DNA of 61,189 nucleotides, filler included, from Candidatus Hydrogenedentota bacterium (lineage in GTDB: Bacteria; JBFMHD01), in the NCBI GenBank assembly GCA_040752395.1. It is 5 parts of 5 records of this genome, joined end to end, with 100 filler letters (N's around TTAATTAATTAA, not from the genome) between each part and the next. Parts side by side here need not be neighbours in the genome. Positions count along the whole stretch, not along the records: positions 49,193 to 61,189 come from JBFMHD010000075.1; 4 more parts are not named here. One strand, 5' to 3'. Positions 3,794-61,189 of the stretch are shown one piece after another (positions within the stretch are counted from its first letter, which is position 1; each line of letters starts with the position of its first letter). A program made the translations under genes and the position numbers. A model generated the notes under the pieces. That model saw only the letters and a list, made by a program, of their open reading frames with translations. It was not told where the DNA came from and ran no database searches.

Positions 3794-3795
3794 AC

Positions 3796-5685: not shown

Positions 5686-5736
5686 GTAAAGTCAACTCAA
5701 ATAGATATGAAAGAATGATTGCCAAGCAAAACGGTC

Positions 5737-5825
5737 GTCTAACACAGCATAAAAGGTTCGTGCCTTACGGCACTCACCCAAATTTTTGCTTCGCAAAAAC
5801 TTCTTTTATGCTGGGAACGTTAAGC
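5737..5825 (+). mobile_element. Integron attC-like recombination site, copy 2
   Basis: GTCTAAC ... GTTAAGC, 89 bp, 5 substitutions relative to 2791-2879. Confidence 0.8.
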
Positions 5826-5867
5826 AAAATGCCAAGCCCAACAAAAAATTATGTAAGGTGAAAGAAG

Positions 5868-12373: not shown

Positions 12374-12473
12374 NNNNNNNNNNNNNNNNNNNNNNNNNNN
12401 NNNNNNNNNNNNNNNNNTTAATTAATTAANNNNNNNNNNNNNNNNNNNNNNNNNNNNNNNNNNNNNNNNNNNN
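12374..12473. other. Artificial contig linker
   Basis: N-run, TTAATTAATTAA (stops in all six frames), N-run; 100 bp. Confidence 0.98.
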
Positions 12474-14073: not shown

Positions 14074-15257
14074 TTGAGATAATTTTGTTAATTTTTAGTC
14101 TTGTTTCTCTTATAATTATTGCGGCTTTATATCTCAAAATAAATCAGATAATTAATAACAGGGCTATAGAGGAACTTAAAATTTTAATAAATACTTTAGA
14201 TAAATCGTTATTGCGGATTGAATCTCTATTCAGAGAAGAGCTGGGTAGGAACAGAGGTGAACTTTTTATTCAGCTTGAGAAGATAAGAGAGACGATTGAA
14301 AATAAACTCACATCAATCCAGAACGACAATAACGAAAAATTAGAAAAAATGAGGCAGACGGTTGATGAAAAACTTCATCAAACATTAGAAAAACGGCTCA
14401 GCGAATCATTTACTATTGTGAGTGAGCGATTGGAGCAGGTGCACAAAGGGTTAGGTGAGATGCAGAATTTAGCAGTGGGTGTCGGCGATCTGAAAAAGGT
14501 TTTGTCCAATGTTAAAAGCCGGGGCGTTTTTGGCGAGATACAGCTTGCGAATATCCTGGAACAGATTTTAAATCCAAGTCAGTATGAGAAAAACGTACCT
14601 ACAAAAAAGGAGAGTAGAGAAAACGTCGAGTTCGCTATTAAACTTCCTGGTAAAGATGATATCGGACATACTGTATATTTGCCCATCGACTCCAAATTCC
14701 CGCTCGAGTACTACTATACATTAGTTGATGCGTATGAACAGGTTGATACATTAAAAATAGAGGTTGCTACCAGAGAACTGGAAACAGTGATTAAAAGATG
14801 TGCTAAAGACATAAGAGATAAATACCTTAATCCGCCAGATACAACAGATTTCGGGATTATGTTTTTACCGGTTGAAGGGTTATATGCTGAAGTCGTTCGT
14901 AGAACTGCTATGATAGAGGTTTTGCAACGAGAATATAAAATTGTTGTCACAGGACCTACAACACTCGCAGCTCTATTAAACAGTTTGCAGATGGGATTTA
15001 AAACACTTGCTATAGAAAAACGTTCAAGTGAGGTGTGGAAGGTATTAGGTGCTGTAAAAACCGAGTTTGAAAGATTTGGCGATGTTTTGAAAAAAGCACA
15101 GGATAAAATCAGTCAGGCAGGTGATGAGTTGGATACCTTAATAGGTACAAGAACTAAACAGATTCAAAAAAAATTGAAAGATGTTCAAGAACTGCCGTCG
15201 CATGAGACACTGCTTTATTTATCAGATAATACCATAGATACTGATGAGTCGTCATGA
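14070..15257 (+). CDS. rmuC: DNA recombination protein RmuC
   Basis: RQTVDEKLHQTLE, RGVFGEIQL, LPIDSKFP, FLPVEGLYAE; ATG 14070 overlaps the trxB stop. Confidence 0.93.
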   Translation: MIEIILLIFSLVSLIIIAALYLKINQIINNRAIEELKILINTLDKSLLRIESLFREELGRNRGELFIQLEKIRETIENKLTSIQNDNNEKLEKMRQTVDEKLHQTLEKRLSESFTIVSERLEQVHKGLGEMQNLAVGVGDLKKVLSNVKSRGVFGEIQLANILEQILNPSQYEKNVPTKKESRENVEFAIKLPGKDDIGHTVYLPIDSKFPLEYYYTLVDAYEQVDTLKIEVATRELETVIKRCAKDIRDKYLNPPDTTDFGIMFLPVEGLYAEVVRRTAMIEVLQREYKIVVTGPTTLAALLNSLQMGFKTLAIEKRSSEVWKVLGAVKTEFERFGDVLKKAQDKISQAGDELDTLIGTRTKQIQKKLKDVQELPSHETLLYLSDNTIDTDESS

Positions 15258-15414
15258 GCGCTTTTGTGATCCACACTATTGGGTTCTTGGGTTCTTGGGT
15301 TATTGCGTTTTTGCGTTTTTGCGCTCTACACAAAGTAGGAAAAACCAGATGTTTGTTTATCTTGCTTCTTGCTTCTACTTGATATTATTAGAGTTACAAC
15401 GTTTTTCAGAGGAG
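15246..15414 (+). repeat. Modular intergenic repeat; core 15379-15414 ends in the RBS of the next gene
   Basis: GAGTCGTCATGAGCGC + (TTGGGTTC)n + GCGCTCTACAC + (TTGCTTC)n + core; ATG 7 nt after GGAG. Confidence 0.92.
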
Positions 15415-15421
15415 GGATATT

Positions 15422-16618
15422 ATGCGATTTAAATTAATAATTTTTATGATTTCGGTTCTTTTAGTAACAACCAATATTTTTGCCTATGAAGAGGATACTG
15501 TTTTTTATGCAAAAGATATTCTTGAGGAAGTTTATCTTAGAGGACCTGCGTTTACTACTGATGAAATTGTTTATCACGATGGATTATTTTATGAGTTCAG
15601 TATCAGTTCTAAATTCGGTAATTACGAGGCTTATTCTGCGGAAGGTCTTTTAATAAGAAAACATGAGCTCGAAACTATGGATAGGTTTGAAGAAATCCGT
15701 GCCGGTGATGAGGTGTTAAAAGGGTTCGGAAATACTCTTGTTGGCGTGGGAAGAGGTGTTGGCGAAGCGGTACTGCATCCAATAGAAACTGTTAAACGTT
15801 TACCCAAAGGTATCGGTAAAATTTTTGGCCGTTTAATCCGTATCGGCAAAAAACATCCTGCTGAAGAGAATAAAACCATTATGCAGGTATTAAGCTCAGG
15901 TGAAAAACGTAAGATCGCTGTTGAACTTGAGGTCGACGTCTATTCTGATAATGAAAAACTTCAAGAGATGTTATACCAGCTTGCTAAATACAGAACTGTC
16001 GGCGGAGGCTCGTTAAAGATAGGTGCTTTTTTTATACCCGGCACAGCGGCTGTGGTCTATAGCATCGGAAGTATTAATCAGGATGTTAAAAATCTTATCA
16101 GAGATAATAATGCTATTGAACTTGAATATATTAATAATAACAAATTAAAAGACCAGGCAATTGATGAAGAATTGAGATTAAAATTCTTGAAGAATACTGT
16201 TTTTACGCCCACAGACCAGACAGTAATTGTTGAATGTCTTGAAAAAATCGGCGCTTTAGAAGGCGAGGATATTTATCTGGAACTCTGTTCCAATATAAAT
16301 GATAAAAAATCAGCTCTGTTTTATCGAAAAACCGTTGAAATACTACTTGTTATGAAAGAAAAAGGTTATCTGCTTGAAAAAATATACAATGTTGATGATG
16401 TTATCTGTGCTTTATGTGATGATATGATTTTTATAGTTCTTCCGTCTGATATGCTCTCTTATACACCTGAAATCGAAGAATTAATAAAGAACACAAAGAA
16501 CAGATTCGAAGATAAAAGCATCACTCTTCTTACATCCGGGAAAATATCTGACCGATTAAAAGAATATCTTGAGAATAAAACAACGATTGTTTTCCTTGAA
16601 AAATTCGGTAAAGAGTGA
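15422..16618 (+). CDS. Secreted hypothetical protein
   Basis: 398-aa ORF with signal peptide-like N-terminus (..TNIFA|YEE) and RBS. Confidence 0.75.
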   Translation: MRFKLIIFMISVLLVTTNIFAYEEDTVFYAKDILEEVYLRGPAFTTDEIVYHDGLFYEFSISSKFGNYEAYSAEGLLIRKHELETMDRFEEIRAGDEVLKGFGNTLVGVGRGVGEAVLHPIETVKRLPKGIGKIFGRLIRIGKKHPAEENKTIMQVLSSGEKRKIAVELEVDVYSDNEKLQEMLYQLAKYRTVGGGSLKIGAFFIPGTAAVVYSIGSINQDVKNLIRDNNAIELEYINNNKLKDQAIDEELRLKFLKNTVFTPTDQTVIVECLEKIGALEGEDIYLELCSNINDKKSALFYRKTVEILLVMKEKGYLLEKIYNVDDVICALCDDMIFIVLPSDMLSYTPEIEELIKNTKNRFEDKSITLLTSGKISDRLKEYLENKTTIVFLEKFGKE

Positions 16619-24747: not shown

Positions 24748-24847
24748 NNNNNNNNNNNNNNNNNNNNNNNNNNNNNNNNNNNNNNNNNNNNTTAATTAAT
24801 TAANNNNNNNNNNNNNNNNNNNNNNNNNNNNNNNNNNNNNNNNNNNN
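24748..24847. other. Artificial contig linker
   Basis: N-run/TTAATTAATTAA/N-run. Confidence 0.98.
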
Positions 24848-24945: not shown

Positions 24946-25212
24946 GTCTCCTCTGAAAAACGCTGTAACTCTAATAATTCGGGCTACAGGCTACGGGCTA
25001 CGGACTACAGCCGGCTGGAGCCAAAAGCCCGGAGCCTGAAGCCAACATATCATCTTTAGTTTTTCATATATTGTGTAGAGCGCAAACGCGCTCATGTTGA
25101 CTCCTTCGAAAAACATTGTAACTATAATAATATCAAGTAGAAGCAAGAGGCAAGAAGCAAGGTAATGGAAAACTGTTGTAGGACAGGAAAGAACTTTGTG
25201 CCTTTGTGCCTC
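24946..25212 (-). repeat. Tandem double unit of the modular intergenic repeat (cores 24948-24978 and 25101-25136)
   Basis: Core-GAAGGAG runs directly into TCAACATGAGCGC hairpin, GGCT heptamer module and a second core that abuts the clpX stop. Confidence 0.92.
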
Positions 25213-27357: not shown

Positions 27358-27475
27358 GAGGAGTCAACATGAGCGCGGTTTGCGCTCTACACAAAGGATG
27401 AAAAACCAGATGTTTGTTTATCTTGCCTCTTGCTTCTACTTGATATCATTAGAGTTACAATGTTTTTCAGAGGAG
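27358..27475 (+). repeat. Modular intergenic repeat; core 27440-27475 ends in RBS
   Basis: Starts and ends with GAGGAG; hairpin GAGCGC-GGTTT-GCGCTC-TAC; ATG 7 nt after the core. Confidence 0.92.
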
Positions 27476-27482
27476 AGATATA

Positions 27483-28892
27483 ATGTTTAATTATGACAGG
27501 GATGAGATTTATATAAGAGATAAAAAACATTTGCTATTCATCCTCTTATTAACAGCCTTATTTCTTGTTGTGATGTTTTTTTTAAAAAACAGATTGATGA
27601 TAGGCTGGTTAAGTGTAATTATTTTATGTTTAATATCTTTTACCTTAAATCTCTTTGTTATATCAAGCGTTGCTATTTTGAATCTTATAGTAACATTAAT
27701 AAACTTAAAAGGAATTGATTTAAAAAATATCAGTCTTTTAATTATAGCTGAAGGATTATTATTTTTCTTTGTTATCAAGATTATCAATTCATTAAAAGAA
27801 GAACACAAAAAAATATACCTCTCATCCCTTGATAATGAGGCTGATATTAATGAGATAAAGGATAGTATAAAAACAAAAGAGAGGAAAGTTGAGGCATTGA
27901 AATTACATATAAAAAGACATAAAAGTATTAAGAACCTTGCTGAAAAATGGATTAAAATTAAAAATTTTGATGACTTTTTAAGGAGCCTGGTTAGCAACAT
28001 TCAAAATTTTATCGGGTGTGACAGAGTTATATTACAACTAAAGGATAAGGAAGGTAAAATCCAAAGGACCGAGTGTTATCCCGATACTATGGGGGAACCA
28101 TTGTTTGATATATATAATGAATGGGTACGGAACAGGAATGAAAACCTTATTGTAAAAGATACTTATAAAGACGTCAGATTTAAAAAAGATGAGAGTATCA
28201 AAAGAGAGATTGGTAGTTTAATAATATGTCAGATAAATCTTAAGGAAGAGTCATTTGGGTATCTGAGGCTTGAATCAACAACTCGTGACTCCATTAGCGT
28301 ATACACCTTAAGACTTGCAGATGCGCTCTCCGAGTTACTTGCTGTTCTTATAAAAAGAAACAATTTAATAGCCGAGGTGGAGAAACTTGCAAGAGTTGAT
28401 GGTTTAACCGGATTATTTAAGAGATGGTATTTTGATATAAGGTTTGAAAAAGAGTATCTTATGGCTAAAAGATATAATTACAGGTTCGGGTTAATAATTT
28501 GTGACATCGACCATTTTAAAAGAATAAACGATACTTATGGTCATTCAGTTGGTGATATTATTCTTTCCAGATGTGCTGATATATTTAAAAATGTAGTAGA
28601 GCCTTATGGCATACATTGCCGGTTTGGTGGTGAGGAGTTTCTCGGATTATTAAGAAGATGTGATAGACCAGAGACGAAAAAGATTGCTGAAGAATTAAGG
28701 ACCCGGATTCTGGATATGGATAACATAGAGTTTAAAAATAGTGAAAAAGTCTCGGTCAGTGTTGGCTTTTCTGTTTTTCCTGATGATTCGATAGATGGAG
28801 AAAAACTTTTTCAGATCGCTGATGAAGCTTTGTACAAAGCTAAAAAACAAGGAAGGAACAGGTGTTTTGGTGGTGAGGATCTGATTAAATGA
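27483..28892 (+). CDS. Membrane GAF-GGDEF diguanylate cyclase
   Basis: TM helices, coiled coil, GAF-like region, DIDHFKRINDTYGH, RFGGEEF. Confidence 0.92.
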   Translation: MFNYDRDEIYIRDKKHLLFILLLTALFLVVMFFLKNRLMIGWLSVIILCLISFTLNLFVISSVAILNLIVTLINLKGIDLKNISLLIIAEGLLFFFVIKIINSLKEEHKKIYLSSLDNEADINEIKDSIKTKERKVEALKLHIKRHKSIKNLAEKWIKIKNFDDFLRSLVSNIQNFIGCDRVILQLKDKEGKIQRTECYPDTMGEPLFDIYNEWVRNRNENLIVKDTYKDVRFKKDESIKREIGSLIICQINLKEESFGYLRLESTTRDSISVYTLRLADALSELLAVLIKRNNLIAEVEKLARVDGLTGLFKRWYFDIRFEKEYLMAKRYNYRFGLIICDIDHFKRINDTYGHSVGDIILSRCADIFKNVVEPYGIHCRFGGEEFLGLLRRCDRPETKKIAEELRTRILDMDNIEFKNSEKVSVSVGFSVFPDDSIDGEKLFQIADEALYKAKKQGRNRCFGGEDLIK

Positions 28893-36925: not shown

Positions 36926-37025
36926 NNNNNNNNNNNNNNNNNNNNNNNNNNNNNNNNNNNNNNNNNNNNTTAATTAATTAANNNNNNNNNNNNNNNNNNN
37001 NNNNNNNNNNNNNNNNNNNNNNNNN
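36926..37025. other. Artificial contig linker
   Basis: N-run/TTAATTAATTAA/N-run. Confidence 0.98.
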
Positions 37026-37328: not shown

Positions 37329-37334
37329 AATATA

Positions 37335-37600
37335 CTCCTCTGAAAAACGTTGTAACTCTAATAATATCAAATAGAAGCAAGAGGCAAGAAGCAAGATAAC
37401 GCAAAAACGCAATAACCCAATAACCCAAGAACCCAATAGTGTAGAGCGCAAACCGCGCTCATGACGACTCCTCTGAAAAAGTTCGGAGCTCGGAGCTCGG
37501 ATCTATTATTACGAACTCCTAACTCCTATCTTTTTCCTACTTTGTGCCTCTGTGCCTCTGTATCTCTTGCTTCTTGCCTCTTTCGTTATCTTGCTTCTCC
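37335..37600 (-). repeat. Modular intergenic repeat; core 37335-37370 ends in the ilvE RBS, with a second core end at 37468-37483
   Basis: TTTTTCAGAGGAG at both ends of the hairpin/8-mer/7-mer unit; further GGAGCTC, TGTGCCTC and TTGCTTC arrays. Confidence 0.92.
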
Positions 37601-44752: not shown

Positions 44753-45291
44753 TTATAATTAAACCCTGGGTTATGTTTAGATAGGTATCTTTTAATTGCA
44801 TCATCCCATAAATTCTTTGCTCTTAAGACCATCTCTATAATCTCTCTTACAGCACCATCACCGCCTTCTCTCTCTGTTATATAATCAGATACAGCTTTTG
44901 CTTCAGTAACTGCATTTTTTACAGAAACACCTACACCTGCTCTTATAATAACAGGTATGTCAACTATATCATCTCCAGCATAAACTATCTCTTCATCGAC
45001 TAAATTATACCTTGATTTGATATCCTCATAAATCTCAAGTTTATTCTCACCCTGATGAACCTCAGTGATCCCAAGTTCTGTAGCATTGATCTTCATTATT
45101 TCTGTAACTTTCTCAGCAATAAGTGCAAATATGATCCCTTCCTCTGAAGCGAGTCTTATGGCAAACCCATCACGTATATCATATTTTTTAGCCCGCCCCT
45201 CAAATACATCAATATAAACCTTCCCATCATTTAATACCCCATCTCCATCAAGTATAATCATCTTAATCTTTGAAAACGAGTTCAAAATCAT
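44749..45291 (-). CDS. kdsC: KDO 8-phosphate phosphatase
   Basis: ILDGDGVLNDG, RDG, YAGDD..D, GGDGAVRE; real start 45291 (the upstream extension is repeat DNA). Confidence 0.9.
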   Translation of the reverse strand: MILNSFSKIKMIILDGDGVLNDGKVYIDVFEGRAKKYDIRDGFAIRLASEEGIIFALIAEKVTEIMKINATELGITEVHQGENKLEIYEDIKSRYNLVDEEIVYAGDDIVDIPVIIRAGVGVSVKNAVTEAKAVSDYITEREGGDGAVREIIEMVLRAKNLWDDAIKRYLSKHNPGFNYK

Positions 45292-45297
45292 AAATCT

Positions 45298-45430
45298 CTC
45301 CTGAAAAACATTGTACTCTAATAATTCGGGGTACAGGCTATGGACCATAGCCGGCTGGAGCCCGAAGCCCGGAGCCTGGAGCCTGAAGAGCCCGTAGTCT
45401 GCAATCTGAAGTCTGTGGTCCTGAGGCCGA
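45298..45430 (-). repeat. Modular intergenic repeat between kdsD and kdsC; core 45298-45325 ends in RBS
   Basis: CAGACTT/CAGGCTC heptamers, AGCCGGCT centre, core with small deletions; ATG 6 nt after GGAG. Confidence 0.88.
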
Positions 45431-48967: not shown

Positions 48968-48976
48968 TATATAATC

Positions 48977-49092
48977 CTCCTCTGAAAAACATTGTAACTA
49001 TAATAATATCAAGTAGAAGCAAGAGGCAAGAAGCAAGAAGCAAGAAGCAAGATAACGGAAGAAGTGAGAGGTATCAGGACAGGCTACAGGCT
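48977..49092 (-). repeat. Modular intergenic repeat; core 48977-49012 ends in RBS; contig breaks inside it
   Basis: Five TTGCTTC/TTGCCTC units plus the CCTGATACCTCTCACTTCTTCCG module identical to the copy in 61117-61140. Confidence 0.92.
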
Positions 49093-49192
49093 NNNNNNNN
49101 NNNNNNNNNNNNNNNNNNNNNNNNNNNNNNNNNNNNTTAATTAATTAANNNNNNNNNNNNNNNNNNNNNNNNNNNNNNNNNNNNNNNNNNNN
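49093..49192. other. Artificial contig linker
   Basis: N-run/TTAATTAATTAA/N-run. Confidence 0.98.
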
Positions 49193-50044: not shown

Positions 50045-50092
50045 TACTTTTGCCTTTTAACTTTTTATAGGAGTTACAAAGTTTTTCAGAGG
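50045..50092 (+). repeat. Truncated repeat core at the flgI RBS
   Basis: GAGTTACAAAGTTTTTCAGAGG, 9 nt before ATG, preceded by TACTTTT/GCCTTTT/AACTTTT heptamers. Confidence 0.8.
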
Positions 50093-50101
50093 GTTTGTGA
50101 G

Positions 50102-51202
50102 ATGACAAGATTTAAAAGAATAATTTTGTTATTAATATTAATCCTGTTTTTTTCAAAAGCAGGTGCAGGACCGCTTGTGAGGATAAAGGACATATCGCGG
50201 TTTGATGGTGTACGTGATAACCAGCTCATAGGTTATGGTCTTGTTGTAGGTTTAGCAGGCACAGGTGATAGTGCCAAGAATTCATTTACTGTTTCTTCGA
50301 TAGTAAATATGTTAACGACGCTCGGGATACCTGTTGATAAGAACGTTCTTACGACTAAAAACATTGCTGCGGTTCTTGTTACCGCGACTTTACCACCATT
50401 TGCAAAAGAAGGCTCAAAAATAGATGTTATAGTATCAGCGATAGGAGATGCATCGAGTTTAAGAAATGGTACTCTTTTACAGACACCGCTTCGTGCGGCT
50501 AATCGCGAGATATATGCAGTAGCACAGGGACAGATATCATTAGGTGGGACAACAGGTATGGGTAGAGGCGGTGGTGGAACTACACACCCGACCGTGGCAC
50601 GGATACCTGAAGGCGCTATTATTGAAATGGGTTTACAAAACGATATTGTTAAGGAAGATGGTAATTTGAAACTTTTACTTTTAAGACCCGATTTTACAAC
50701 TTCATCGAGAATCGCATCTGCTATAAATCAGAATTTTAAAAATAATGTAGCTAAAGCTGTTGATGCAAATCAGATTGTAATTAGTATCCCGGATAAATAT
50801 AAACAGGATGTAATTACTTATGCCTCTATGATAGAAGAGCTACTTGTTGAACCTGATAATTATGCAAGAGTGGTTATAAATGAGAGAACAGGGACAGTGG
50901 TGATGGGCAATGATGTAAGGATAGACGCTGTGGCAATAACACATGGCGATTTAACTGTTACCGTGAGAAGAGAAGAAGAGATGGAATTACTTCCACAAAC
51001 TCAAACAGCTCAAACTGAGCGACGTGCCACAAGAAGAGAAGCAGAAAAAAAGGATTCAGTTGTTGTTTTACAATCAGGTGCTTCAATATCAGATTTAGTG
51101 AGAGCCTTGAATACAATAGGTGCTAAACCAAGGGATATTATAGCAATCCTTCAGGCAATCAAAGAAGCAGGTGCATTGAAAGCTGAACTGGTATTTATTT
51201 AG
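50102..51202 (+). CDS. flgI: Flagellar P-ring protein
   Basis: RIKDI..GVRDNQLIGYGLVVGLAGTGD, NIAAVLVTATLPPF, VVINERTGTVV. Confidence 0.96.
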   Translation: MTRFKRIILLLILILFFSKAGAGPLVRIKDISRFDGVRDNQLIGYGLVVGLAGTGDSAKNSFTVSSIVNMLTTLGIPVDKNVLTTKNIAAVLVTATLPPFAKEGSKIDVIVSAIGDASSLRNGTLLQTPLRAANREIYAVAQGQISLGGTTGMGRGGGGTTHPTVARIPEGAIIEMGLQNDIVKEDGNLKLLLLRPDFTTSSRIASAINQNFKNNVAKAVDANQIVISIPDKYKQDVITYASMIEELLVEPDNYARVVINERTGTVVMGNDVRIDAVAITHGDLTVTVRREEEMELLPQTQTAQTERRATRREAEKKDSVVVLQSGASISDLVRALNTIGAKPRDIIAILQAIKEAGALKAELVFI

Positions 51203-51643: not shown

Positions 51644-51801
51644 TGAAATGAGACATGGAGGATTTTTAAAATATATAAAACAATAAAGCCCTATTTTATC
51701 TATTTTAGGTTTGAATATCTTAAAAATTAATACAAAAAAATTATAAAAAAATAAATTTAAAACTTGACAAAAAAACAAATTAAATATTAGTAAAGCCTTT
51801 A

Positions 51802-51900
51802 ACTCATATAATCTTGGTAATTGGTCCAGGAGTCTCTACAAAGAGGCCGTATAACCTCTTTACCACCACACCAATTAGTGTGGTGGTGGTAACTATGAGT
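51802..51900 (+). ncRNA. Purine (guanine-type, C74) riboswitch aptamer with an inserted 30-nt hairpin
   Basis: P1 ACTCATA/TATGAGT, UAA junction, P2 TCTTGG/CCAGGA with L2 GG, J2/3 GTCTCTAC, P3 AAAGAGG/CCTCTTT with L3 CCGTATAA; upstream of the pur operon. Confidence 0.88.
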
Positions 51901-51921
51901 AAATAGACAAATGCTCAATTA

Positions 51922-51995
51922 GACCTTTTAAGGGGGTCGGGCGAGATCTATTTTACGGTTAGAATGGCTTCCATGGATCTCGACCGACCTTTTTT
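51922..51995 (+). terminator. Probable riboswitch expression platform (terminator with a competing helix)
   Basis: GGGGTCGG-G-CGAGATCTA pairs with TGGATCTCG-A-CCGACCTT followed by a T-run; its 5' arm can instead pair with upstream GACCTTTT. Confidence 0.55.
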
Positions 51996-52055
51996 GTCTT
52001 TAAAGGTAAAGAGAACCGTCGTAAAAAACACTACTGACCAATTATTAATAATATA

Positions 52056-52222
52056 AAGACAGAAGACATTAGGGTTCAGGAGTTGAGGAGTTGAAGAGTT
52101 ACGAATCTTTAAACACTTTAACTCTTGAACTCCTGAACTTATCAACTTTATGTTTGTTTATCTTGCTTCTTGCCTCTTGCTTCTACTTGATATTATTATA
52201 GTTACAAAGTTTTTCAGAGGAG
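52056..52222 (+). repeat. Modular intergenic repeat; core 52187-52222 ends in the purC RBS
   Basis: GGAGTTGA 8-mer array and its inverse, ATGTTTGTTTATC, (TTGCTTC)n, core; ATG 7 nt later. Confidence 0.92.
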
Positions 52223-52229
52223 GTAATAT

Positions 52230-52940
52230 ATGGCTTTATTGTACGAGGGCAAAGCAAAGAGGATGCACACAACCACTGACCCGGAACAGCTTATTATGGA
52301 GTTCAAAGATTCAGCTACAGCGTTTAATGGCAAGAAGAAAGCTGAATTAAAAAACAAGGGTAAAATCAATAAAAAACTGACGTTATATTTTTTTGAGATG
52401 CTTGAAGACCACGGCATACCAACACATCTTATCAGAGATTTAAGTGAGAATGAAATACTTGTAAAACGTGTTAGCATTATACCGGTTGAGCTTATTGTTC
52501 GCAACATAGTTGCTGGTAGTCTTTCTAAACGTTCAGGGCTACCCGAAGGGACTGCGCTTGATTTTCCAGTTATTGAATATTATTATAAAAGCGATGAGTT
52601 AGGAGACCCTATGATTAATAGTGACCATATATTGGTTTTAAATTTAGCAACAGAAGAAGAGTTGCAGATAATGAGAAGTATGGCTTTAAAAATTAATGAG
52701 ATCCTTTCTTTATTTTTTGATAAAGCAGGTATATTACTTGTTGATTTTAAACTTGAGTTTGGTAAGACTTCGCTTAATGAGATAGTTTTAGCTGATGAGA
52801 TATCACCTGATACCTGTAGGTTCTGGGATAAAGAAACAGGTAAAAAACTTGATAAAGACAGGTTCAGACGAGATTTAGGCGATGTGATAGAGAGTTATAT
52901 GGAGGTTTTAGGGAGAGTAGAAAATGCATTGTGTTGTTGA
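52230..52940 (+). CDS. purC: SAICAR synthetase
   Basis: LYEGKAK, VELIVRN, LVDFKLEFG, ADEISPDTCRFWD. Confidence 0.96.
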   Translation: MALLYEGKAKRMHTTTDPEQLIMEFKDSATAFNGKKKAELKNKGKINKKLTLYFFEMLEDHGIPTHLIRDLSENEILVKRVSIIPVELIVRNIVAGSLSKRSGLPEGTALDFPVIEYYYKSDELGDPMINSDHILVLNLATEEELQIMRSMALKINEILSLFFDKAGILLVDFKLEFGKTSLNEIVLADEISPDTCRFWDKETGKKLDKDRFRRDLGDVIESYMEVLGRVENALCC

Positions 52941-53403
52941 AATTATTAATAGATTCTCATCCCCTAAAGATTTACAAGAGATAATCTATGATAGAACCGT
53001 TACAGGTTATTCGTATGCAAAGACTAAGGTATATGTAATAGAATATGAAGGTGAGGAGAGTTTAATAAAGAAGTTTGTTGAAATGGTATTTGCTGATAAG
53101 GTTGTAGATAATAAAGAGTATAATGGCAAGCCTTTTTATTCCGATGCTATTTACATTATAGATGTTGAATTAAAACCAGGGGTTCTTGATTTAGAAAAAG
53201 AATATGCTTTTAGATATAAGGACATTTTATCAAACGAGGGGCTGGTTATAAAAGATTTGAAAATTTCACAAAGGTATTATCTTTTTGGTAAACACAGTGA
53301 AAGGGTAAAAGAGGTGTTTATAAAATCAGGTCCGATTAATTCTGTGATACATAGTTATAAAGAAGTAAGAAGTATCAGAAAAAAGAAGCAAGAAGCAAGA
53401 TAA
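52924..53403 (+). CDS. PurS-like (tandem) FGAM synthetase accessory protein
   Basis: Lies between purC and purL; VELKPGVLD, NSVIH motifs resemble PurS / the PurL N-terminal domain. Confidence 0.6.
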   Translation: MHCVVEIINRFSSPKDLQEIIYDRTVTGYSYAKTKVYVIEYEGEESLIKKFVEMVFADKVVDNKEYNGKPFYSDAIYIIDVELKPGVLDLEKEYAFRYKDILSNEGLVIKDLKISQRYYLFGKHSERVKEVFIKSGPINSVIHSYKEVRSIRKKKQEAR

Positions 53404-53520
53404 CGGAAAGGAAAGAAAAGGTAAAGGTTGAGGTTGATATTATTAGAGTTACAAAGTTTTTCAAAGGGGGGCAGATAAATTTGCAATTTGCAATTTATAA
53501 TGGAGCGAAGCGACAAGAAG
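53365..53520 (+). repeat. Modular intergenic repeat before purL (inverted heptamer module, core 53434-53469, TTGCAAT array)
   Basis: AAGCAAGAAGCAAGATAACGGAA (reverse module), TTGATATTATTAGAGTTACAAAGTTTTTCAAAGG, (TTGCAAT)2-GGAGCGAAGCGAC. Confidence 0.88.
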
Positions 53521-53522
53521 AG

Positions 53523-55913
53523 ATGGATAGCGAACTAATTCCGATACTTGAGATGACTGATAGCGAGCTTGGGGAGCTATTTTTTAAGAGGAAACTATCT
53601 TTATCTAAATTTGATCTACGTGTAATCAAGGATTATTTCAGAGAGATAAAGAGAAATCCGACCGAACTTGAGATAGAGGTCATAGCGCAGACATGGAGTG
53701 AACATTGTAAACATCGGATCTTCAATGGAAGAATTTTACATAATGAAAATAATAAGATGAAGGTTATAGATGGTATTTTTAAAACTTATATAAAGGGGGT
53801 AACAGAAAAGATAATAAAAGAGCGAGATGGTTTTGTTTTATGTGCATTCGAGGATAATGCAGGATTTATAAAACTTGATGATGAGTTATCTGTCTGTTTC
53901 AAAGTAGAGACTCACAATCATCCCTCAGCGATAGAGCCATACGCAGGTGCGAATACCGGTATAGGTGGTGTTATAAGAGACATTCTTGGTGCTGGACGTG
54001 GTGCAAAACCCGGCGCCTGTATAGATGTTTTTTGTTTCGGACCACCTGATTGTGATATCGCAAATATAGAAGAAGGTGTAATACATCCACAAAGCATATT
54101 AAGGGGTGTAGTAAAAGGTGTAAGAGATTATGGTAATCGTATGGGCATACCTACTCTATGTGGCGCGATACATTTTAATAAGGTCTATACCTATAACCCA
54201 CTTGTTTATTGTGGTAGTGCAGGCATTATACCTATAAAGGATATCAAGAAAGAAGTTTATAAGGGTTTGAGTATAGTTCTTGTTGGTGGGAAAACAGGCA
54301 GAGATGGTTTACGGGGGGCTACTTTCTCATCTGCTTCACTTAGAGAAGATAGCAGAACTGAAGACATAGTTGCAGTCCAGATAGGAAACCCGATAGAAGA
54401 AAAGAAGATACTTGACTTTGTATTAAAAGCCAGGGAAAAAGGATTGATAGAATATATAACTGATTGTGGTGGTGGTGGTTTATCAAGTGCTTGTGGGGAA
54501 ATGTTAAAAACTACTGGTGGTAAGATATATCTTGAGAAGGTTCCGCTGAAAGAGCCGGGTATGAAATCCTGGGAAATATTTTTATCAGAGAGTCAGGAAC
54601 GTATGGTTCTGGCAGTGAAAGATGAAAATTTAAAAGAATTATCTTATCTTACTACAATATACGATATTGATTGCACAGAGATAGGTGAGATAACAGATAC
54701 CAAAAGACTCGAGGTATATTATTTTAATAATAAAGTCTGCGATTTAGAGTCTGAGTTCCTGCATAATCCACCTTATAAAGTTTTAGTATCACATTATAGA
54801 GACAATAATCTGAAAGCAGAGATTACTTCAAATTATAACGAAAATGAAATCTCTAATTTATTTAAACGTGTTCTTGCTGATATAAATATCGTCTCAAGGG
54901 AACCTGTTATTCGGGAATACGATTTCGAAGTACAGGGTAATACAGTTGTAAAACCTTTAATCGGCGGTCTTGGTGATATGCCACAGGATGGCGTTGCCAT
55001 ACGGGTTGATGGTAGTAAGAAGTATATAGGTTTAGGATGCTCGATTTTACCCTCGTATGCTTTAATCGACCCATATAATATGGGTTTATCCACACTTGAC
55101 GAAGCGGTTCGACAGATAATAGTTACGGGTGTTAATCCTGAAAAGATTGCGTTACTTGATAATTTCTGTATAGGTAATCCGGATGATTCTTATGAACTTG
55201 GCAGATTAGTAAAATGTGCCGAGGCGATATCTTATGTTGCATTATGTTATAAGACGCCGTTTATCTCAGGCAAAGATTCATTCTACAACTATTATATCTC
55301 AGAGAATGGTATACAATCGATACCTGTAAGTCTTTTGATAAGCTCTATTGGGATAATTGATGATAAATCAGATATTACAACGAGTAATATAAAGAGCGGT
55401 AATTCTCTTTTATGTATTGTTGGTTATACCAAAAAAGAGTTAGGTGGCAGTATATATTATAAGATTTTAGATATTAATGGTGGTCGGGTGCCAGGATTAG
55501 ACCCGCAACTCGCTTTAAAAATTTATCAGCAGTTTTATAAATGTATTAAAGACAGATTAATTCTTGCAAGCCATGATGTTTCAGAGGGTGGCGTTATTGT
55601 GGCATTAACCGAGATGGGTTTTGGAATAAATTGTGGGATTGAGATAGATGTTGATAGGATAATCAAAGAAGAGGATATGAGTATATCAGAACTATTATTT
55701 TCAGAATCGAATTCGAGGATAGTTTTTGAGATAGAAGAATCAAATCTTTTTAAGATAAAAGAGCATTTTAAAGATTTACCGTTTACGGTTATAGGCAAAA
55801 GTGTTAATAATCACAGAAAAATTATAATTAAAAATAAGAACAATATTGTAGTTGAAGAAAGTTTAGAGGAGCTTAAGAATATATGGAAGAAAGGGTTAGA
55901 AGTTTACTATTAA
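53523..55913 (+). CDS. purL: FGAM synthetase subunit PurL
   Basis: QTWSEHCKH, KVETHNHPSAIEP, DCGGGGLS, LSESQERM, ISGKDS; ATG 53523 preferred because the TTG at 53481 lies in repeat DNA. Confidence 0.95.
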   Translation: MDSELIPILEMTDSELGELFFKRKLSLSKFDLRVIKDYFREIKRNPTELEIEVIAQTWSEHCKHRIFNGRILHNENNKMKVIDGIFKTYIKGVTEKIIKERDGFVLCAFEDNAGFIKLDDELSVCFKVETHNHPSAIEPYAGANTGIGGVIRDILGAGRGAKPGACIDVFCFGPPDCDIANIEEGVIHPQSILRGVVKGVRDYGNRMGIPTLCGAIHFNKVYTYNPLVYCGSAGIIPIKDIKKEVYKGLSIVLVGGKTGRDGLRGATFSSASLREDSRTEDIVAVQIGNPIEEKKILDFVLKAREKGLIEYITDCGGGGLSSACGEMLKTTGGKIYLEKVPLKEPGMKSWEIFLSESQERMVLAVKDENLKELSYLTTIYDIDCTEIGEITDTKRLEVYYFNNKVCDLESEFLHNPPYKVLVSHYRDNNLKAEITSNYNENEISNLFKRVLADINIVSREPVIREYDFEVQGNTVVKPLIGGLGDMPQDGVAIRVDGSKKYIGLGCSILPSYALIDPYNMGLSTLDEAVRQIIVTGVNPEKIALLDNFCIGNPDDSYELGRLVKCAEAISYVALCYKTPFISGKDSFYNYYISENGIQSIPVSLLISSIGIIDDKSDITTSNIKSGNSLLCIVGYTKKELGGSIYYKILDINGGRVPGLDPQLALKIYQQFYKCIKDRLILASHDVSEGGVIVALTEMGFGINCGIEIDVDRIIKEEDMSISELLFSESNSRIVFEIEESNLFKIKEHFKDLPFTVIGKSVNNHRKIIIKNKNNIVVEESLEELKNIWKKGLEVYY

Positions 55914-56614
55914 AATTCCCGGGCACTAATTGTGACAGCGAGACTGATAGAGCATTAAGAACAGCCGGGTTTGATAATGATATCATCCCTATTAATTTAC
56001 TTAACAGAGATATGATTTTTGAATATTCGATGGTGGTTATACCCGGAGGCTTTAGTTATGGCGATTATATTAGGGCTGGCAGGCTTGCTCAACTTGAGCT
56101 TGGCTTAAAGATAGGTGATGCGTTGTTTGAGTTTAAAGAAAAGGGTGGCTTGATACTTGGGATTTGTAATGGTTTTCAGATATTATTGCAGCTTGCTCTT
56201 TTGCCGCAAGCTAGTCTTACGACGAACATCTCTGGAAGATTTATCTGTAAATGGGTAAAATTAAAAATTATAAATAGAAAAACACCGTTTTTATATCTTT
56301 TACCTTGGAAGTTTGAACTACCTGTTGCTCATATTGAGGGCAGATTTGTGACAAGTGAGAATAAAGCAAATGAATACGTTGATTCTGGGTTAGCTTCGCT
56401 TGTATATGAAGAAAATATAAACGGCTCAGAATGTGGAATAGCAGGCTTGAATGATGAGACAGGCCGGGTATTTGGTTTGATGCCGCATCCTGAACGATTT
56501 TTATTTTATGATGATTATTACAATATTGATAAAAGTAGTAATGAGAGGTATGGTAGTGGTTATATATTTTTTAGGTCTGTGTATGAATATCTGAAAGTAG
56601 GGGGTAAAATGTAG
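55883..56614 (+). CDS. purQ: FGAM synthetase glutaminase subunit
   Basis: FPGTNCD, PGGFSYGD, GICNGFQ, MPHPER. Confidence 0.96.
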   Translation: MEERVRSLLLKFPGTNCDSETDRALRTAGFDNDIIPINLLNRDMIFEYSMVVIPGGFSYGDYIRAGRLAQLELGLKIGDALFEFKEKGGLILGICNGFQILLQLALLPQASLTTNISGRFICKWVKLKIINRKTPFLYLLPWKFELPVAHIEGRFVTSENKANEYVDSGLASLVYEENINGSECGIAGLNDETGRVFGLMPHPERFLFYDDYYNIDKSSNERYGSGYIFFRSVYEYLKVGGKM

Positions 56615-58006
56615 ATGGAGCTTAAGGACAAATGCGGGCTATTTGGGGTATATAACAGTCCGACCGCTTCGAAAGACATATATTTAGGCCTTTATGCACA
56701 GCAGCACAGAGGCCAGGAAAGCGCTGGAATGGTTGTCTGTTCAGAGGATGGGTCATTCAATGTTCATAAAGGAATCGGGCTTGTTACAAATGTCTTTAAT
56801 GAATCCACAATAGAGAAACTTAAAGGTGGATTTGGTATAGGACATGTTAGATATTCTACATCAGGCGATACAGACATAAAAAACATACAGCCTATTGTTG
56901 TTAGCTACAGAAACAATGTATTGGGACTTGCACATAACGGGAACCTTATCAACGCATTAAGGTTAAGGGAAGAACTTGAGGATAAAGGCTCGATATTTAC
57001 AACCACAAGTGATACAGAGGTAATGCTTCATAAAATTGTAAAATCACAAAAAGTAAAGCCAGTGGATAAAATAGTTGAGGGTCTCTATGGTGTAGAGGGT
57101 GCATTTTCTATCCTACTTTTATTTGAGATGGGGATAGCTGCTGTAAGAGACCCGTGGGGTTTCAGACCTTTATTTTTCGGGAAACGGGATGATTCATTTT
57201 ATTTTGCCTCTGAAACCTGCGCATTTGATTTACTCGGTGTCAATGATTATAGAGAAGTTGAGCCAGGCGAGGGTTATTACATATCAGAGAAAAGGATTGA
57301 GAAATTCAGGCTTTTATCTTTTGCGAGACGATGTTTATGCATTTTCGAGCTTATATATTTTTCAAGACCTGATAGTACTTATAAAGGTTCATCGATACAT
57401 AATTATAGACTCAAATTAGGGATGCAGCTTTATAAAGACCAGAAAGCAGAAGCTGATATGGTTATAAGTGTACCTGATTCCTCCAATTCCGCAGCGCTTG
57501 GTTATTCTTTAGCATCAGGGATACCATTTAATATAGTAATGATAAGGAGCCATTATACAGGCAGGACATTTATAGCACCTTATCAGAGTATCCGGGATTT
57601 TAAAGTAAAGAAAAAGTTTAATATTATAAAAGACGTTGTAAAAGATAAGCGAGTTGTTGTTGTAGATGACTCGATCGTTCGTGGTACCACTGCAAAAAAG
57701 ATTGTGAAATTAATAAGAGAGAGCGGCGCAAAAGAGATACATTTAAGAATAGCATCGCCTATGATTAGATACCCCTGTTATTTTGGTATCGATATGCCTG
57801 ATTTTAATGAACTTTTTGTAAATAAAATACCATCAGATAAATTTAATGGCTACATCGGCGCTGATTCAATCGGTTATCTGAAATTAGAGAGTTTGCAGAG
57901 CATATTTGGTAATAAATTTTGCAAAGCTTGTTTTGATGGTCAGTATCCGATGGAGATAAAAAATATCGAAGATACACTTATTAAAAAGACAAAGCAAGGT
58001 AGATGA
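56615..58006 (+). CDS. purF: Amidophosphoribosyltransferase
   Basis: Propeptide then CGLFG, QHRGQES, GHVRYST, VVDDSIVRGTT, Fe-S cysteines. Confidence 0.96.
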   Translation: MELKDKCGLFGVYNSPTASKDIYLGLYAQQHRGQESAGMVVCSEDGSFNVHKGIGLVTNVFNESTIEKLKGGFGIGHVRYSTSGDTDIKNIQPIVVSYRNNVLGLAHNGNLINALRLREELEDKGSIFTTTSDTEVMLHKIVKSQKVKPVDKIVEGLYGVEGAFSILLLFEMGIAAVRDPWGFRPLFFGKRDDSFYFASETCAFDLLGVNDYREVEPGEGYYISEKRIEKFRLLSFARRCLCIFELIYFSRPDSTYKGSSIHNYRLKLGMQLYKDQKAEADMVISVPDSSNSAALGYSLASGIPFNIVMIRSHYTGRTFIAPYQSIRDFKVKKKFNIIKDVVKDKRVVVVDDSIVRGTTAKKIVKLIRESGAKEIHLRIASPMIRYPCYFGIDMPDFNELFVNKIPSDKFNGYIGADSIGYLKLESLQSIFGNKFCKACFDGQYPMEIKNIEDTLIKKTKQGR

Positions 58007-58998
58007 GGGACAGGATGTTTACTTATAAACAGGCAGGCGTAAACATAGATACAGCTGAGAAAATCGTGGGAGAGATAGCTGTGCTCCAAAAAAAAACAGA
58101 AATAACTAAAAAATTGTTAAATAAGTTTGGTTTTTTTTCTAGCTGCTATGTTTTAAAAGGATATAAAAACCCTGTGATGGTGGCAACCTGTGATGGTGTC
58201 GGAACCAAACTTAAATTGCTAAAAGATTATGATTTGATAGAAACAGCTGGTTGGGACGTCGTTGCTATGAATATCAATGACATCCTTACAACAGGTGCGA
58301 TGCCTTTAATGTTTTTAGATTATATAGGGATGAATAAGATTGATAGTGTATTAATAAAGAGGTTGATTAAAGGCATTACATCTGCTTGTGTTGAGAGTGA
58401 ATGTATTCTGGCTGGTGGCGAAACAGCTGAAATGCCAGGACTTGTTAAACCAGATTCTTTTGAATTGGCTGGTTTTTGCGTTGGAGTTTGTGAAAAGGAT
58501 GAATTAGTAAAACCTGAAACTATAATAGAAGGTGATATAGCTTTAGGATTTAAATCAAATGGTTTTCATTCAAATGGGTTCAGTTTAATTAGAAAGATAT
58601 TAGAAGAGAGAAAAAAAGACTTTAATATAAAAGAGATAAAAAATTTACTTAACAGAACTAAAATTTATTATAAGGAGATAAAAAGGTTAAAAGAGCTAAA
58701 AGTAATGATTAAAGGGATAGCTCATATTACAGGTGGCGGCATCCCGCGTAACTTATCCAGGATTATTAATAAAGGTTTGGGGGTTAGAATAAAATTACCC
58801 AGGATACAATGCGAGAGTATCATAAAAATATTGAAATATGTTGATAAAAGAGAGGCTATAAATGTTTTTAATATGGGGATCGGATTAATTATTATCTGCG
58901 ATAAAAAATATTATGATAAAATTGTAGAGAATTTCAAAGAGATTTATTTTCTTTCCGAGGTGGAAAAATCAGATATTACTTGCAGGGTATTTATATGA
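58003..58998 (+). CDS. purM: AIR synthetase
   Basis: YKQAGVNI, DGVGTK, GGETAEMPG, GFHSNG, HITGGG. Confidence 0.95.
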   Translation: MRDRMFTYKQAGVNIDTAEKIVGEIAVLQKKTEITKKLLNKFGFFSSCYVLKGYKNPVMVATCDGVGTKLKLLKDYDLIETAGWDVVAMNINDILTTGAMPLMFLDYIGMNKIDSVLIKRLIKGITSACVESECILAGGETAEMPGLVKPDSFELAGFCVGVCEKDELVKPETIIEGDIALGFKSNGFHSNGFSLIRKILEERKKDFNIKEIKNLLNRTKIYYKEIKRLKELKVMIKGIAHITGGGIPRNLSRIINKGLGVRIKLPRIQCESIIKILKYVDKREAINVFNMGIGLIIICDKKYYDKIVENFKEIYFLSEVEKSDITCRVFI

Positions 58999-59588
58999 CC
59001 ATAAAACTCGCAGTACTTGCCTCAGGCAGAGGTTCCAATTTTCAAGCTATATTACAATCGATTCTAAAAAATGAGCTTGATGCAACTATTAAAGCACTTA
59101 TCTCAGATAATAAAGATGCAAAAGCTTTAACTATCGCAAAAGAAAATAATATACCCACATTTTATATTCCGTATGATAAAAATAATCGGATTGAGTTTGA
59201 GAAGAAAGCCATAGAGATTATTGATAGTTATTCCTGTGATTTAATAATTCTTGCTGGCTTTATGAGGATACTCACTTCTTTTTTTGTAAAATATTACGAA
59301 AATAAGATACTCAATATCCATCCATCGTTGCTACCAGCTTTTAAGGGGCTTGATGCTCAGAAACAGGCACTTTTATATGGCGTGAAAATTACTGGCTGTA
59401 GTGTTCATATAGTTACAGAGAATCTCGATGATGGTCCGATTTTGGCACAGAGAGCTGTCCCGGTGTATGATAATGATACAGTGGAATCGCTTTCTCAAAG
59501 AATATTAGAACAAGAACATATATTGTATGTGGAAGCAATAAAGATTTATGAAAAGAAATATATAGATGGTAGAAGACAGAAGACATGA
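58995..59588 (+). CDS. purN: GAR transformylase
   Basis: LASGRGSN, LAGFMRIL, NIHPSLLP, GCSVH, DDGPI. Confidence 0.96.
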   Translation: MTIKLAVLASGRGSNFQAILQSILKNELDATIKALISDNKDAKALTIAKENNIPTFYIPYDKNNRIEFEKKAIEIIDSYSCDLIILAGFMRILTSFFVKYYENKILNIHPSLLPAFKGLDAQKQALLYGVKITGCSVHIVTENLDDGPILAQRAVPVYDNDTVESLSQRILEQEHILYVEAIKIYEKKYIDGRRQKT

Positions 59589-59668
59589 AGTCAAACTTCT
59601 CACTTTTTCATTATCTTGCCTCTTGCTTCTACTTGATATTATTATAGTTACAATGTTTTTCAGAGGAG
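59571..59668 (+). repeat. Modular intergenic repeat; core 59633-59668 ends in the purD RBS
   Basis: (AGAAGAC)2, TTATCTTGCCTCTTGCTTCTAC, core; ATG 6 nt after GAGGAG. Confidence 0.92.
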
Positions 59669-59674
59669 AAACAA

Positions 59675-60931
59675 ATGAGGGTCGCAGTACTTGGTAAAGG
59701 TGGCAGAGAACATTGTATAGTGTGTGAATTAATTGAATCAAAGACCAGACCCGAGATATATGTATATCCAGGCAGCGATGCAATGTTAAAAATAGCAAAA
59801 AGAATTGAGATACCACAAGCGAGTACTGGTTGTGATGAACTTGTTAAAACAATGAAAAAGATAAGGATAGATTTATGTATTGTAGGTTCTGAACAGTATC
59901 TTGAAGATGGAATAGCTGATAGATGTATAGAGAACAGGATTGCGGTGTTTGGACCCGTTAAATCATCAGCAAGATTAGAGACAAGTAAGGTTTTTGGTAA
60001 AGAATTTATGAGAAGAAACAATATACCAACCGCTGATTTTAATATAGCTTATAATGATAAAGAACTAATGAATTTGATAAAAGTGTATCCTGTAGTATTA
60101 AAATACGACGGTTTAGCAGCTGGCAAAGGCGTATCTATTTGCTATGATGAAAAAGAAGTAAAAAATTACATCAATGATGTCTTTACGTTAAAAAAGTTTG
60201 GACAGATTAAACCTGTTATAGTTGAGGAGTGTTTACAAGGAAAAGAACTATCAGTAATCTGTGCTGTATCAGATGGCGCATATCGGATTTTTCCATGTGC
60301 AAGGGATTATAAAAGATTATTCGATGGAGATAAAGGACCGAATACTGGTGGGATGGGAGCGGTTGCTTCTACTTCACTTATTACAGCAAATCTTTTTCTT
60401 GAAATAAAATCTAAAATAATCGAACCTACTATCAAAGCACTATTGAAAAATGAATTGTCTTATCGTGGATTTTTATATTTCGGATTAATACTAACGGATG
60501 CTGGACCAAAAGTATTAGAATATAATTGCAGGTTCGGGGACCCTGAAGCCCAGGCTATACTACCATTGATTGATGGTGATTTTACTCGTTTTATATATAA
60601 AGCTGCAAAAGGGGTGATTGATGATAGTTTAATATCATCAAGGAAGGGCTGGTGTACCTGTCTTGTATTAGCTTCACAGCGATACCCTTATGAATCAGAT
60701 AAAGGTGCTGAAATAAAAGGACTCGAAGCTATTCGTATGGCAAGGGTTTATCACTCAGGAACATATTTTGAGAATGGTTGTTATAAAGTTTCAGGTGGCA
60801 GAGCATTAAGTGTGAGCGCTATTGGTTATAATCGAGAGAGTGCTGTAAGTAGAGTGTATTCTGAGATAGAAAAAATCTATTTTGAAGGTATGCAATATCG
60901 TAGAGATATAGGCAGGTTACACTTTGAATAG
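59675..60931 (+). CDS. purD: GAR synthetase
   Basis: GKGGREH, DGLAAGKGV, GPNTGGMG, EYNCRFGDPE. Confidence 0.96.
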   Translation: MRVAVLGKGGREHCIVCELIESKTRPEIYVYPGSDAMLKIAKRIEIPQASTGCDELVKTMKKIRIDLCIVGSEQYLEDGIADRCIENRIAVFGPVKSSARLETSKVFGKEFMRRNNIPTADFNIAYNDKELMNLIKVYPVVLKYDGLAAGKGVSICYDEKEVKNYINDVFTLKKFGQIKPVIVEECLQGKELSVICAVSDGAYRIFPCARDYKRLFDGDKGPNTGGMGAVASTSLITANLFLEIKSKIIEPTIKALLKNELSYRGFLYFGLILTDAGPKVLEYNCRFGDPEAQAILPLIDGDFTRFIYKAAKGVIDDSLISSRKGWCTCLVLASQRYPYESDKGAEIKGLEAIRMARVYHSGTYFENGCYKVSGGRALSVSAIGYNRESAVSRVYSEIEKIYFEGMQYRRDIGRLHFE

Positions 60932-60939
60932 CCTACTTA

Positions 60940-61189
60940 TTTTTTCGAGGTAGTCAATATAAGCGCGGTTTGCGCTCTACACTATTGGGTTCTTGGGTTC
61001 TTGGGTTATTGCGTTTTTGCGCTTTACACAACGTATGAAAAACTAAAGATGATATGTTGGCTTCAGGCTCCGGGCTTTTGGCTCCAGCCGGCTGGAGTCC
61101 GTAGCCTGTAGCCTGTCCTGATACCTCTCACTTCTTCCGTTATCTTGCTTCTTGCCTCTATTTGATATTATTAAAGTTACAATGTTTTT
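60940..61189 (+). repeat. Most complete copy of the modular intergenic repeat; window ends inside the core
   Basis: TTTTTCGAGGTAG, GTAG hairpin, TTGGGTTC array, ATGAAAAACTAAAGATGATATG, GGCT/AGCC mirrored heptamers, CCTGATACC module, core from 61162. Confidence 0.93.

Follow-up and report, generated by a model that had tools for sequence, protein, structure and literature searches.

A guanine-type purine riboswitch with an extra predicted hairpin between P3 and P1 in a purine biosynthesis leader

The leader of a purine biosynthesis gene cluster in a low-GC, flagellated bacterium of an essentially unsampled lineage contains a canonical guanine-type purine riboswitch, i.e., a family member by score for which guanine binding is predicted from sequence, with 30 additional nucleotides that separate helix P3 from helix P1 and are predicted to fold as a fourth stem. 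We give about an even chance to the reading that this is a guanine OFF switch that still works, or nearly so, and carries a recent passenger hairpin. All positions refer to the window, i.e., the whole stretch of 61,189 nucleotides that was analyzed, in which five contigs of about 12 kb were artificially joined; the riboswitch contig spans 49193–61189. Linkers of the form N44-TTAATTAATTAA-N44 lie at 12374–12473, 24748–24847, 36926–37025 and 49093–49192, and because they are artificial, genes facing each other across them are not genomic neighbors.

The aptamer core matches the purine riboswitch family

When the entire window was scanned, RF00167 (purine riboswitch) was the sole Rfam family at or above its gathering score. 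The match lies at 51784–51915 on the + strand and scores 45.9 bits compared with a gathering score of 37 (E 1.8e-4); on the riboswitch contig, other Rfam families gave no more than sub-threshold chance matches. The initial annotation had placed all elements of a purine aptamer in 51802–51900, and the sequence reads as described there. In alignment and folds, the P1 5′ strand ACUCAUA (51802–51808, + strand as for all features of the leader) pairs with the 3′ strand UAUGAGU (51894–51900), with pair probabilities of 0.79–1.0. According to the RF00167 alignments, J1/2 UAA (51809–51811) fits the consensus UAUAAU core. It is followed by the P2 hairpin (51812–51831; 51812–51818 with 51825–51831, pair probability 0.86–1.0) with the loop L2 AAUUGG, by J2/3 GUCUCUAC (51832–51839; consensus GUUUCUAC) and by the P3 hairpin (51840–51861), in which AAAGAGG and CCUCUUU (51840–51846 with 51855–51861) enclose L3 CCGUAUAA. 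Adjoining P1, the alignments place a J3/1 A-C (51892–51893) of which the C is the guanine-type specificity base; a C is thus found at the specificity position 51893, and another one at 51863. These bases are A73 and C74 in the numbering of the B. subtilis xpt structures. The GG of L2 and the CC of L3 are present. As had been annotated, both loops are slightly atypical: relative to the Rfam consensus, the 6-nt L2 lacks one base and L3 has one more.

In the full-length alignment, P1, J1/2, P2 and J2/3 fit the consensus, and the P3 region, 50 nt long vs 19 nt in the model, was skipped as a local end. As a proxy for scoring the aptamer without its insert, we separately scanned the first 80 nt of the match (51784–51863) and obtained a 3′-truncated RF00167 match of 53.0 bits. 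Here P2, J2/3, P3 and L3 were aligned to the consensus; AAAGAGG / CCGUAuAA / CCUCUUU fell on P3 and L3 of the model, a single base being inserted. We hence conclude that the first hairpin is P3 and the second one is extra; the opposite assignment, with the second hairpin (P4) as the true P3, was ruled out on the same grounds. P1, P2 and P3 have their usual lengths, and J1/2 with its UAUAAU core and J2/3 (GUNUCUAC) are conserved in alignments and folds. The element departs from the three-stem junction with a 2-nt J3/1, since the gap from P3 to P1 is 32 nt and a fourth stem is predicted.

A perfect hairpin lies between P3 and P1

The insert occupies 51862–51891, where 30 nt lie between P3 and the A-C-U leading into P1, just as the initial annotation had read the sequence. 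At the DNA level it is ACCACCACAC-CAATTA-GTGTGGTGGT-GGTA, followed by A-C-U; in the RNA the stem ACCACCACAC/GUGUGGUGGU closes the loop CAAUUA and is followed by the 3′ tail GGUA. This hairpin, P4, has ten perfect base pairs without any wobble pair, a folding energy of −17.6 kcal/mol alone and pair probabilities of 0.96–0.99. G or C make up 16 of the 30 inserted bases, compared with about 34% GC for the window. The 26-nt hairpin core ACCACCACAC-CAATTA-GTGTGGTGGT differs from its own reverse complement by 2 mismatches and is expected 0 times according to 100 window shuffles.

In the 80-nt alignment, the dinucleotide AC with which the insert begins is likewise placed on the 'AC' of the consensus J3/1. 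An AC is thus found on either side, adjoining P3 at 51862–51863 and P1 at 51892–51893, and the event can be described as an insertion of 28 nt together with a 2-nt duplication whose boundary is ambiguous. The inverted-end features comprise the 10-bp perfect inverted repeat, a 10-bp alternative register that extends into the flanking sequence, and the AC on either side, two bases being too few as proof. Searching the genome for other copies of the insert had been suggested at the outset. The hairpin is single-copy in the 61 kb window, and its pattern had 0 matches in viral_contigs, so that a dispersed repeat was not demonstrated. Moreover, its rhythm of 3 nt is unlike that of the 7–8-nt modules of this genome, and it resembles none of the repeat families of the window.

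An assembly artefact, i.e., 30 nt that are absent from the DNA of the organism, is conceivable in so far as the record is a draft whose contigs, about 12 kb each, are connected by N-linkers. However, a clean 30-nt hairpin insertion with a 2-nt duplication would in our judgement be an unusual short-read error, and the flanks are continuous and unique. We consider this explanation highly improbable.

Comparable inserts were absent from the riboswitches surveyed

RF00167 matches were found in 71 of 151 Bacillota genomes. The matches listed (n = 150, with three more unlisted) are all 96–105 nt long, and none of them contains a comparable insert. They score between 56 and 95 bits in 147 of the 150 cases and about 46.5 bits in the other three. 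At 45.9 bits, the full-length element bears out the earlier warning that covariance searches may score it poorly.

We also scanned 401 Clostridia genomes with a pattern that required 36–80 nt between J2/3 and ACTAYR. This yielded 15 matches in 14 genomes, compared with, by our count, 30 matches in 27 genomes for the reversed-pattern control. Four of the 15 are true riboswitches (L203, L208, L211, L213), and in all four P3 runs directly onto ACUAUG; the other 11 were judged by eye to be chance matches. The pattern scan of these 401 genomes hence contained no comparable insert. L203 (G349:C1, about 2057636–2057739) has the same 6-nt L2 AAUUGG, together with a short 6-nt L3, normal overall length and no insert, which indicates that the L2 variant occurs independently of the insert. 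In viral_contigs, the pattern of the L2-variant core gave 0 matches; a generic long P3-to-P1 pattern gave at least 120 there, which we judged, uninspected, to be chance-level from the low specificity of the pattern and left unused.

Close relatives of the host were scarce. The best matches of PurC in genome_contigs are 54–62% identical among those listed, and an aptamer-core regular expression found no riboswitch in the 80 PurC loci among the matches listed. The best non-self PurC match overall is 71% identical and lies on a 1,197-nt Logan contig, with the remainder at 64% or less. For EF-G the matches reach 65% (JGI, 2.5-kb contig), 54% and then at most 48% identity, and the named ones among the last group span several candidate phyla. 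FlgI matched generic FlgI clusters only and was thus uninformative on taxonomy. In the titles and abstract openings of the literature, we encountered no natural four-way or extra-hairpin guanine or purine riboswitch.

The insert is predicted to be neutral for secondary structure

An expression platform follows the aptamer. An intrinsic terminator at 51930–51996, in which the base AAGGGGGUCGG pairs with CCGACCUUUUU ahead of a U-run, has a folding energy of −29.6 kcal/mol alone; a simple terminator scan requiring a loop of 3–8 nt had missed it because of its long internal loop. Since an intrinsic terminator follows the aptamer, transcription would probably be OFF when guanine or hypoxanthine is plentiful. 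Upstream of the aptamer, TTGACA at 51764–51769, read from the sequence, may be the −35 box of a promoter for the leader; the consensus promoter scan did not call it, as there is no good −10 box at 16–18 nt.

In folds of the growing transcript, an alternative helix forms between ACCUCUUU (51854–51861), i.e., the last L3 base and the P3 3′ strand, and AAGGGGGU (51930–51937), the terminator base adjoining the U-run. We regard this predicted helix as a candidate anti-terminator: with ligand bound, the P3 strand would stay within the aptamer, by which AAGGGGGU would be freed and the terminator completed. In the same folds, the inserted hairpin is nested in the alternative helix and stacked on it. 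The alternative helix minus the aptamer amounts to −2.5 kcal/mol with the insert and −2.1 kcal/mol without it when the 3′ end is at 51937, and to +2.7 and +3.1 kcal/mol, respectively, when it is at 51960. The insert thus moves the balance between aptamer and candidate anti-terminator by 0.4 kcal/mol.

At minimum energy, the 103-nt aptamer is predicted to fold into four helices, in line with the four-way junction that had been anticipated. Deleting the insert in silico leaves the pair probabilities of P1 and P2 given above unchanged, whereas those of P3 are 0.16–0.46 with the insert vs 0.49–0.64 in the deletion. With a probability of 0.57, the last base of P3 is drawn into the hairpin as part of a U-G pair, and the hairpin takes over the last P3 pair in the minimum-energy fold. 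It had further been proposed that an extended register of the hairpin, TTACCACCAC/GTGGTGGTAA, could compete with the binding fold. This register exists and would take two P3 pairs and the A adjoining P1. However, in a 111-nt context it reaches −33.3 kcal/mol compared with −38.4 kcal/mol for the aptamer with the inner hairpin; being 5.1 kcal/mol worse, with an occupancy of about 0.01, it was rejected as a fold competitor, and a competing-register mechanism is unsupported. From the shift of 0.4 kcal/mol and the unchanged P1 and P2 we conclude that the insert is neutral in secondary-structure predictions; tertiary effects at the ligand pocket lie beyond these predictions. In these predictions the hairpin folds autonomously, and it would probably project from the junction as a tolerated fourth stem, perhaps with altered ligand affinity.

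The P4 apex is complementary to L2

The apex of P4, ACCAAUUA (51870–51877), is a perfect 8-nt complement of UAAUUGGU, i.e., of L2 with its closing U.U (51818–51825), and as such a longer L2 complement. The calculated duplex energy is −8.1 kcal/mol vs −4.7 kcal/mol for L2/L3, and 7 of 2000 random 12-mers of contig composition equaled it. The complementarity could point to a function, although we take it as suggestive only, because it was spotted post hoc among many possible pairings.

In a functional four-stem variant, P4 would be a selected part of the aptamer and, for example, pairing of its apex with L2 might compete with the L2–L3 contact and tune or gate ligand binding. Apart from the complementarity, the perfect stem, the otherwise fully conserved aptamer and the one-base departures of both L2 and L3 from the consensus are consistent with such a variant. 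However, the wobble-free stem suits a young sequence equally well, and the identical L2 occurs in L203 next to a junction of ordinary size. Nor did a second example appear among the 150 matches listed from 151 Bacillota genomes or in the 401 Clostridia genomes, and a long loop–loop helix between stems of the same junction would presumably be sterically demanding. We therefore consider a selected fourth stem unlikely. A specific form of it, in which pairing of ACCAAUUA with UAAUUGGU would compete with the pocket-preorganizing L2–L3 contact and act as a decoy that sets the ligand threshold or the folding kinetics, appears very unlikely to us.

Purine genes follow the riboswitch, and some share a repeat cassette

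The downstream gene order is purC-ORF159-purL-purQ-purF-purM-purN-purD, all on the + strand, i.e., the riboswitch has purine-related genes downstream of its expression platform; flgI and a flgJ-like rod-binding gene lie upstream of it. purC (52230–52940) matches TIGR00081 with 249 bits, and purL to purD span 53481–60931. ORF159 (52924–53403), an orphan reading frame at the usual place of purS, encodes 159 amino acids that have no Pfam, NCBIfam or PDB match and found only themselves among 5.8 billion proteins. A single-sequence AlphaFold2 model of ORF159 has a mean pLDDT of 40.3, which is too poor for a fold search. An assignment as PurS was set aside as it had no Pfam, NCBIfam or PDB signal; ORF159 could represent PurS in a doubled or highly divergent form, or a different protein.

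Between the terminator and the purC start codon lie about 170–230 nt of repeat modules. They include a second leader hairpin at 52074–52138, whose 27-nt arms consist of 8-nt repeats GTTGAGGA and are 85% complementary. Directly 5′ of the purC ATG, repeat searches identified a leader cassette of the form (CTTGCYT)n-TTGATATTATTATAGTTACAAAGTTTTTCAGAGGAGG (52150–52229). Cassettes of this type, (CTTGCYT)n-TTGATATTATTAKAGTTACAAYGTTTTTCAGAGGAG, end a few bases 5′ of the start codon in flgI, purC, purL and purD as well as in six further genes. Their 23-nt core occurs in 10 copies in the window when up to 3 mismatches are allowed, with 0 expected. With the cassette as a lineage marker, a scan of metagenome_contigs pointed to a single locus, L201, an AT-rich sequence that matches by chance.

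The cassette before purC contains a promoter-like TTGCCT-18-TATTAT at 52170–52199. This site lends itself to a different explanation, i.e., a disabled relic: the insert would have broken the pocket, the terminator would persist as a constitutive insulator behind the flagellar genes, and purC would be transcribed from the cassette. Structurally, the insert falls precisely at the place at which, as in the solved xpt structures, both J3/1 bases must be stacked between P3 and P1. That the cassette also precedes purL and purD suggests expression signals gene by gene. However, the leader region has 6 promoter-like sites vs 4.1 ± 1.7 in shuffles, i.e., such sites are not commoner than by chance, and the cassette could just as well be a leader for ribosome binding. 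Furthermore, every conserved aptamer position is intact, so that any inactivation would have to be very recent. We judge a disabled switch to be improbable, on a par with the selected fourth stem.

The cassettes lie at 15352–15422, 27413–27483, 50059–50102, 52150–52229, 53434–53477, 59606–59676 and 61135–61189 on the + strand and at 24948–24978, 25100–25172, 37334–37406, 45290–45315 and 48976–49048 on the − strand. They combine a Shine-Dalgarno-like GAGGAG with the promoter-like TTGCCT-18-TATTAT and adjoin many unrelated genes, some of them within the pur cluster. The cassette may be a portable promoter, a ribosome-binding module or a mobile element.

Other repeats are found throughout the window. 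Most intergenic regions hold tandem arrays of 7–8 nt, often as hairpins and with copies common to several contigs; the units include TTGGGTTC, GGCTACA, AGAAGCA, TGTGCCTC and GTTGAGGA, among others. Examples are located at 15279–15327, 24982–25010, 37396–37438, 37543–37581, 45359–45388, 49015–49052, 52074–52139 and 60985–61019. They are reminiscent of the heptamer repeats of some cyanobacteria. A dispersed hairpin, GAGCGC-GGTTT-GCGCTC, stands 3′ of several genes (15256–15330, 27371–27387 and 60960–61025; 25050–25066 and 37440–37456 on the − strand), and in some copies its loop is enlarged by arrays of TTGGGTTC/TTGCGTTT. In addition, a 96-nt element occurs in two copies (2789–2884 and 5735–5830) that are 93% identical and flank the genes at 3137–5685. 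Each copy has an 11-bp inverted repeat, CAGCATAAAAG...CTTTTATGCTG, and its sites matched no Rfam family at gathering scores in the whole-window scan.

GC-rich hairpins, some of them common to several contigs, are present in most spacers, and the insert matches this habit of the genome in being GC-rich and palindromic. With intergenic regions full of repeat modules and GC-rich hairpins, a recent local insertion is favored. The initial annotation had left the choice between a structural variant and a small palindromic element. The perfect GC-rich stem, the duplicated AC and the repeat-crowded genome speak for the palindromic element; this half of the proposal gains ground, although a second copy is missing from the window. 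Most likely, the insertion was recent and locus-specific and would have arisen from the same repeat- and hairpin-generating activity that has filled the intergenic regions, this leader included.

Discussion

Among three-way-junction aptamers, the purine riboswitch is the reference example, and it varies very little in length, as the range of 96–105 nt in the 150 matches listed illustrates. The whole hairpin that this natural copy has at the seam of P3, J3/1 and P1 raises a question open to direct test, namely whether the pocket can bear a fourth stem on the continuous strand. If guanine is still bound, the seam would be a permissive insertion site for scaffold engineering, and covariance models would under-score working switches. 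If guanine is not bound, the locus would be a dated snapshot of riboswitch loss in a genome that rebuilds its leaders with repeat cassettes. As all evidence comes from a single assembled sequence of a lineage that is unsampled, we attach moderate weight to the finding.

Among the closest known systems is the guanine riboswitch of RF00167, as in the xpt-pbuX and purE leaders of Bacillus subtilis. Both share the P1-P2-P3 core, J1/2, J2/3, the specificity C, the GG of L2 and the CC of L3, and both have a terminator behind the aptamer and genes of purine biosynthesis further downstream. In contrast to the family, the element described here has 30 extra nucleotides as a fourth stem between P3 and P1, an L2 shortened and an L3 lengthened by one base, and a full-length score of 45.9 bits, and repeat modules separate its terminator from the start codon.

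The insert itself invites comparison with REP, BOX, Correia and MITE-like elements, i.e., with small intergenic palindromes that are repeated in a genome and may end up in leaders. Like these, the insert is short, GC-rich and a near-perfect palindrome, with a possible 2-nt duplication at its ends and a repeat-rich genome around it. Unlike them, it is single-copy in the window, and it has no resemblance to the repeat families there.

Natural variants of the guanine riboswitch offer a further comparison. PMC9295807 describes variants changed in J2-3 and J3-1, with seven classes built on one three-stem junction and with one- or two-nucleotide insertions in J2-3. The adenine, 2′-dG-I, 2′-dG-II, 2′-dG-III, xanthine-II, guanine-II and 8-oxoguanine classes share the scaffold with our element and are changed in their joining regions. 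These variants thus keep the three-stem junction, whereas the riboswitch upstream of purC has ordinary guanine pocket residues and a whole hairpin added.
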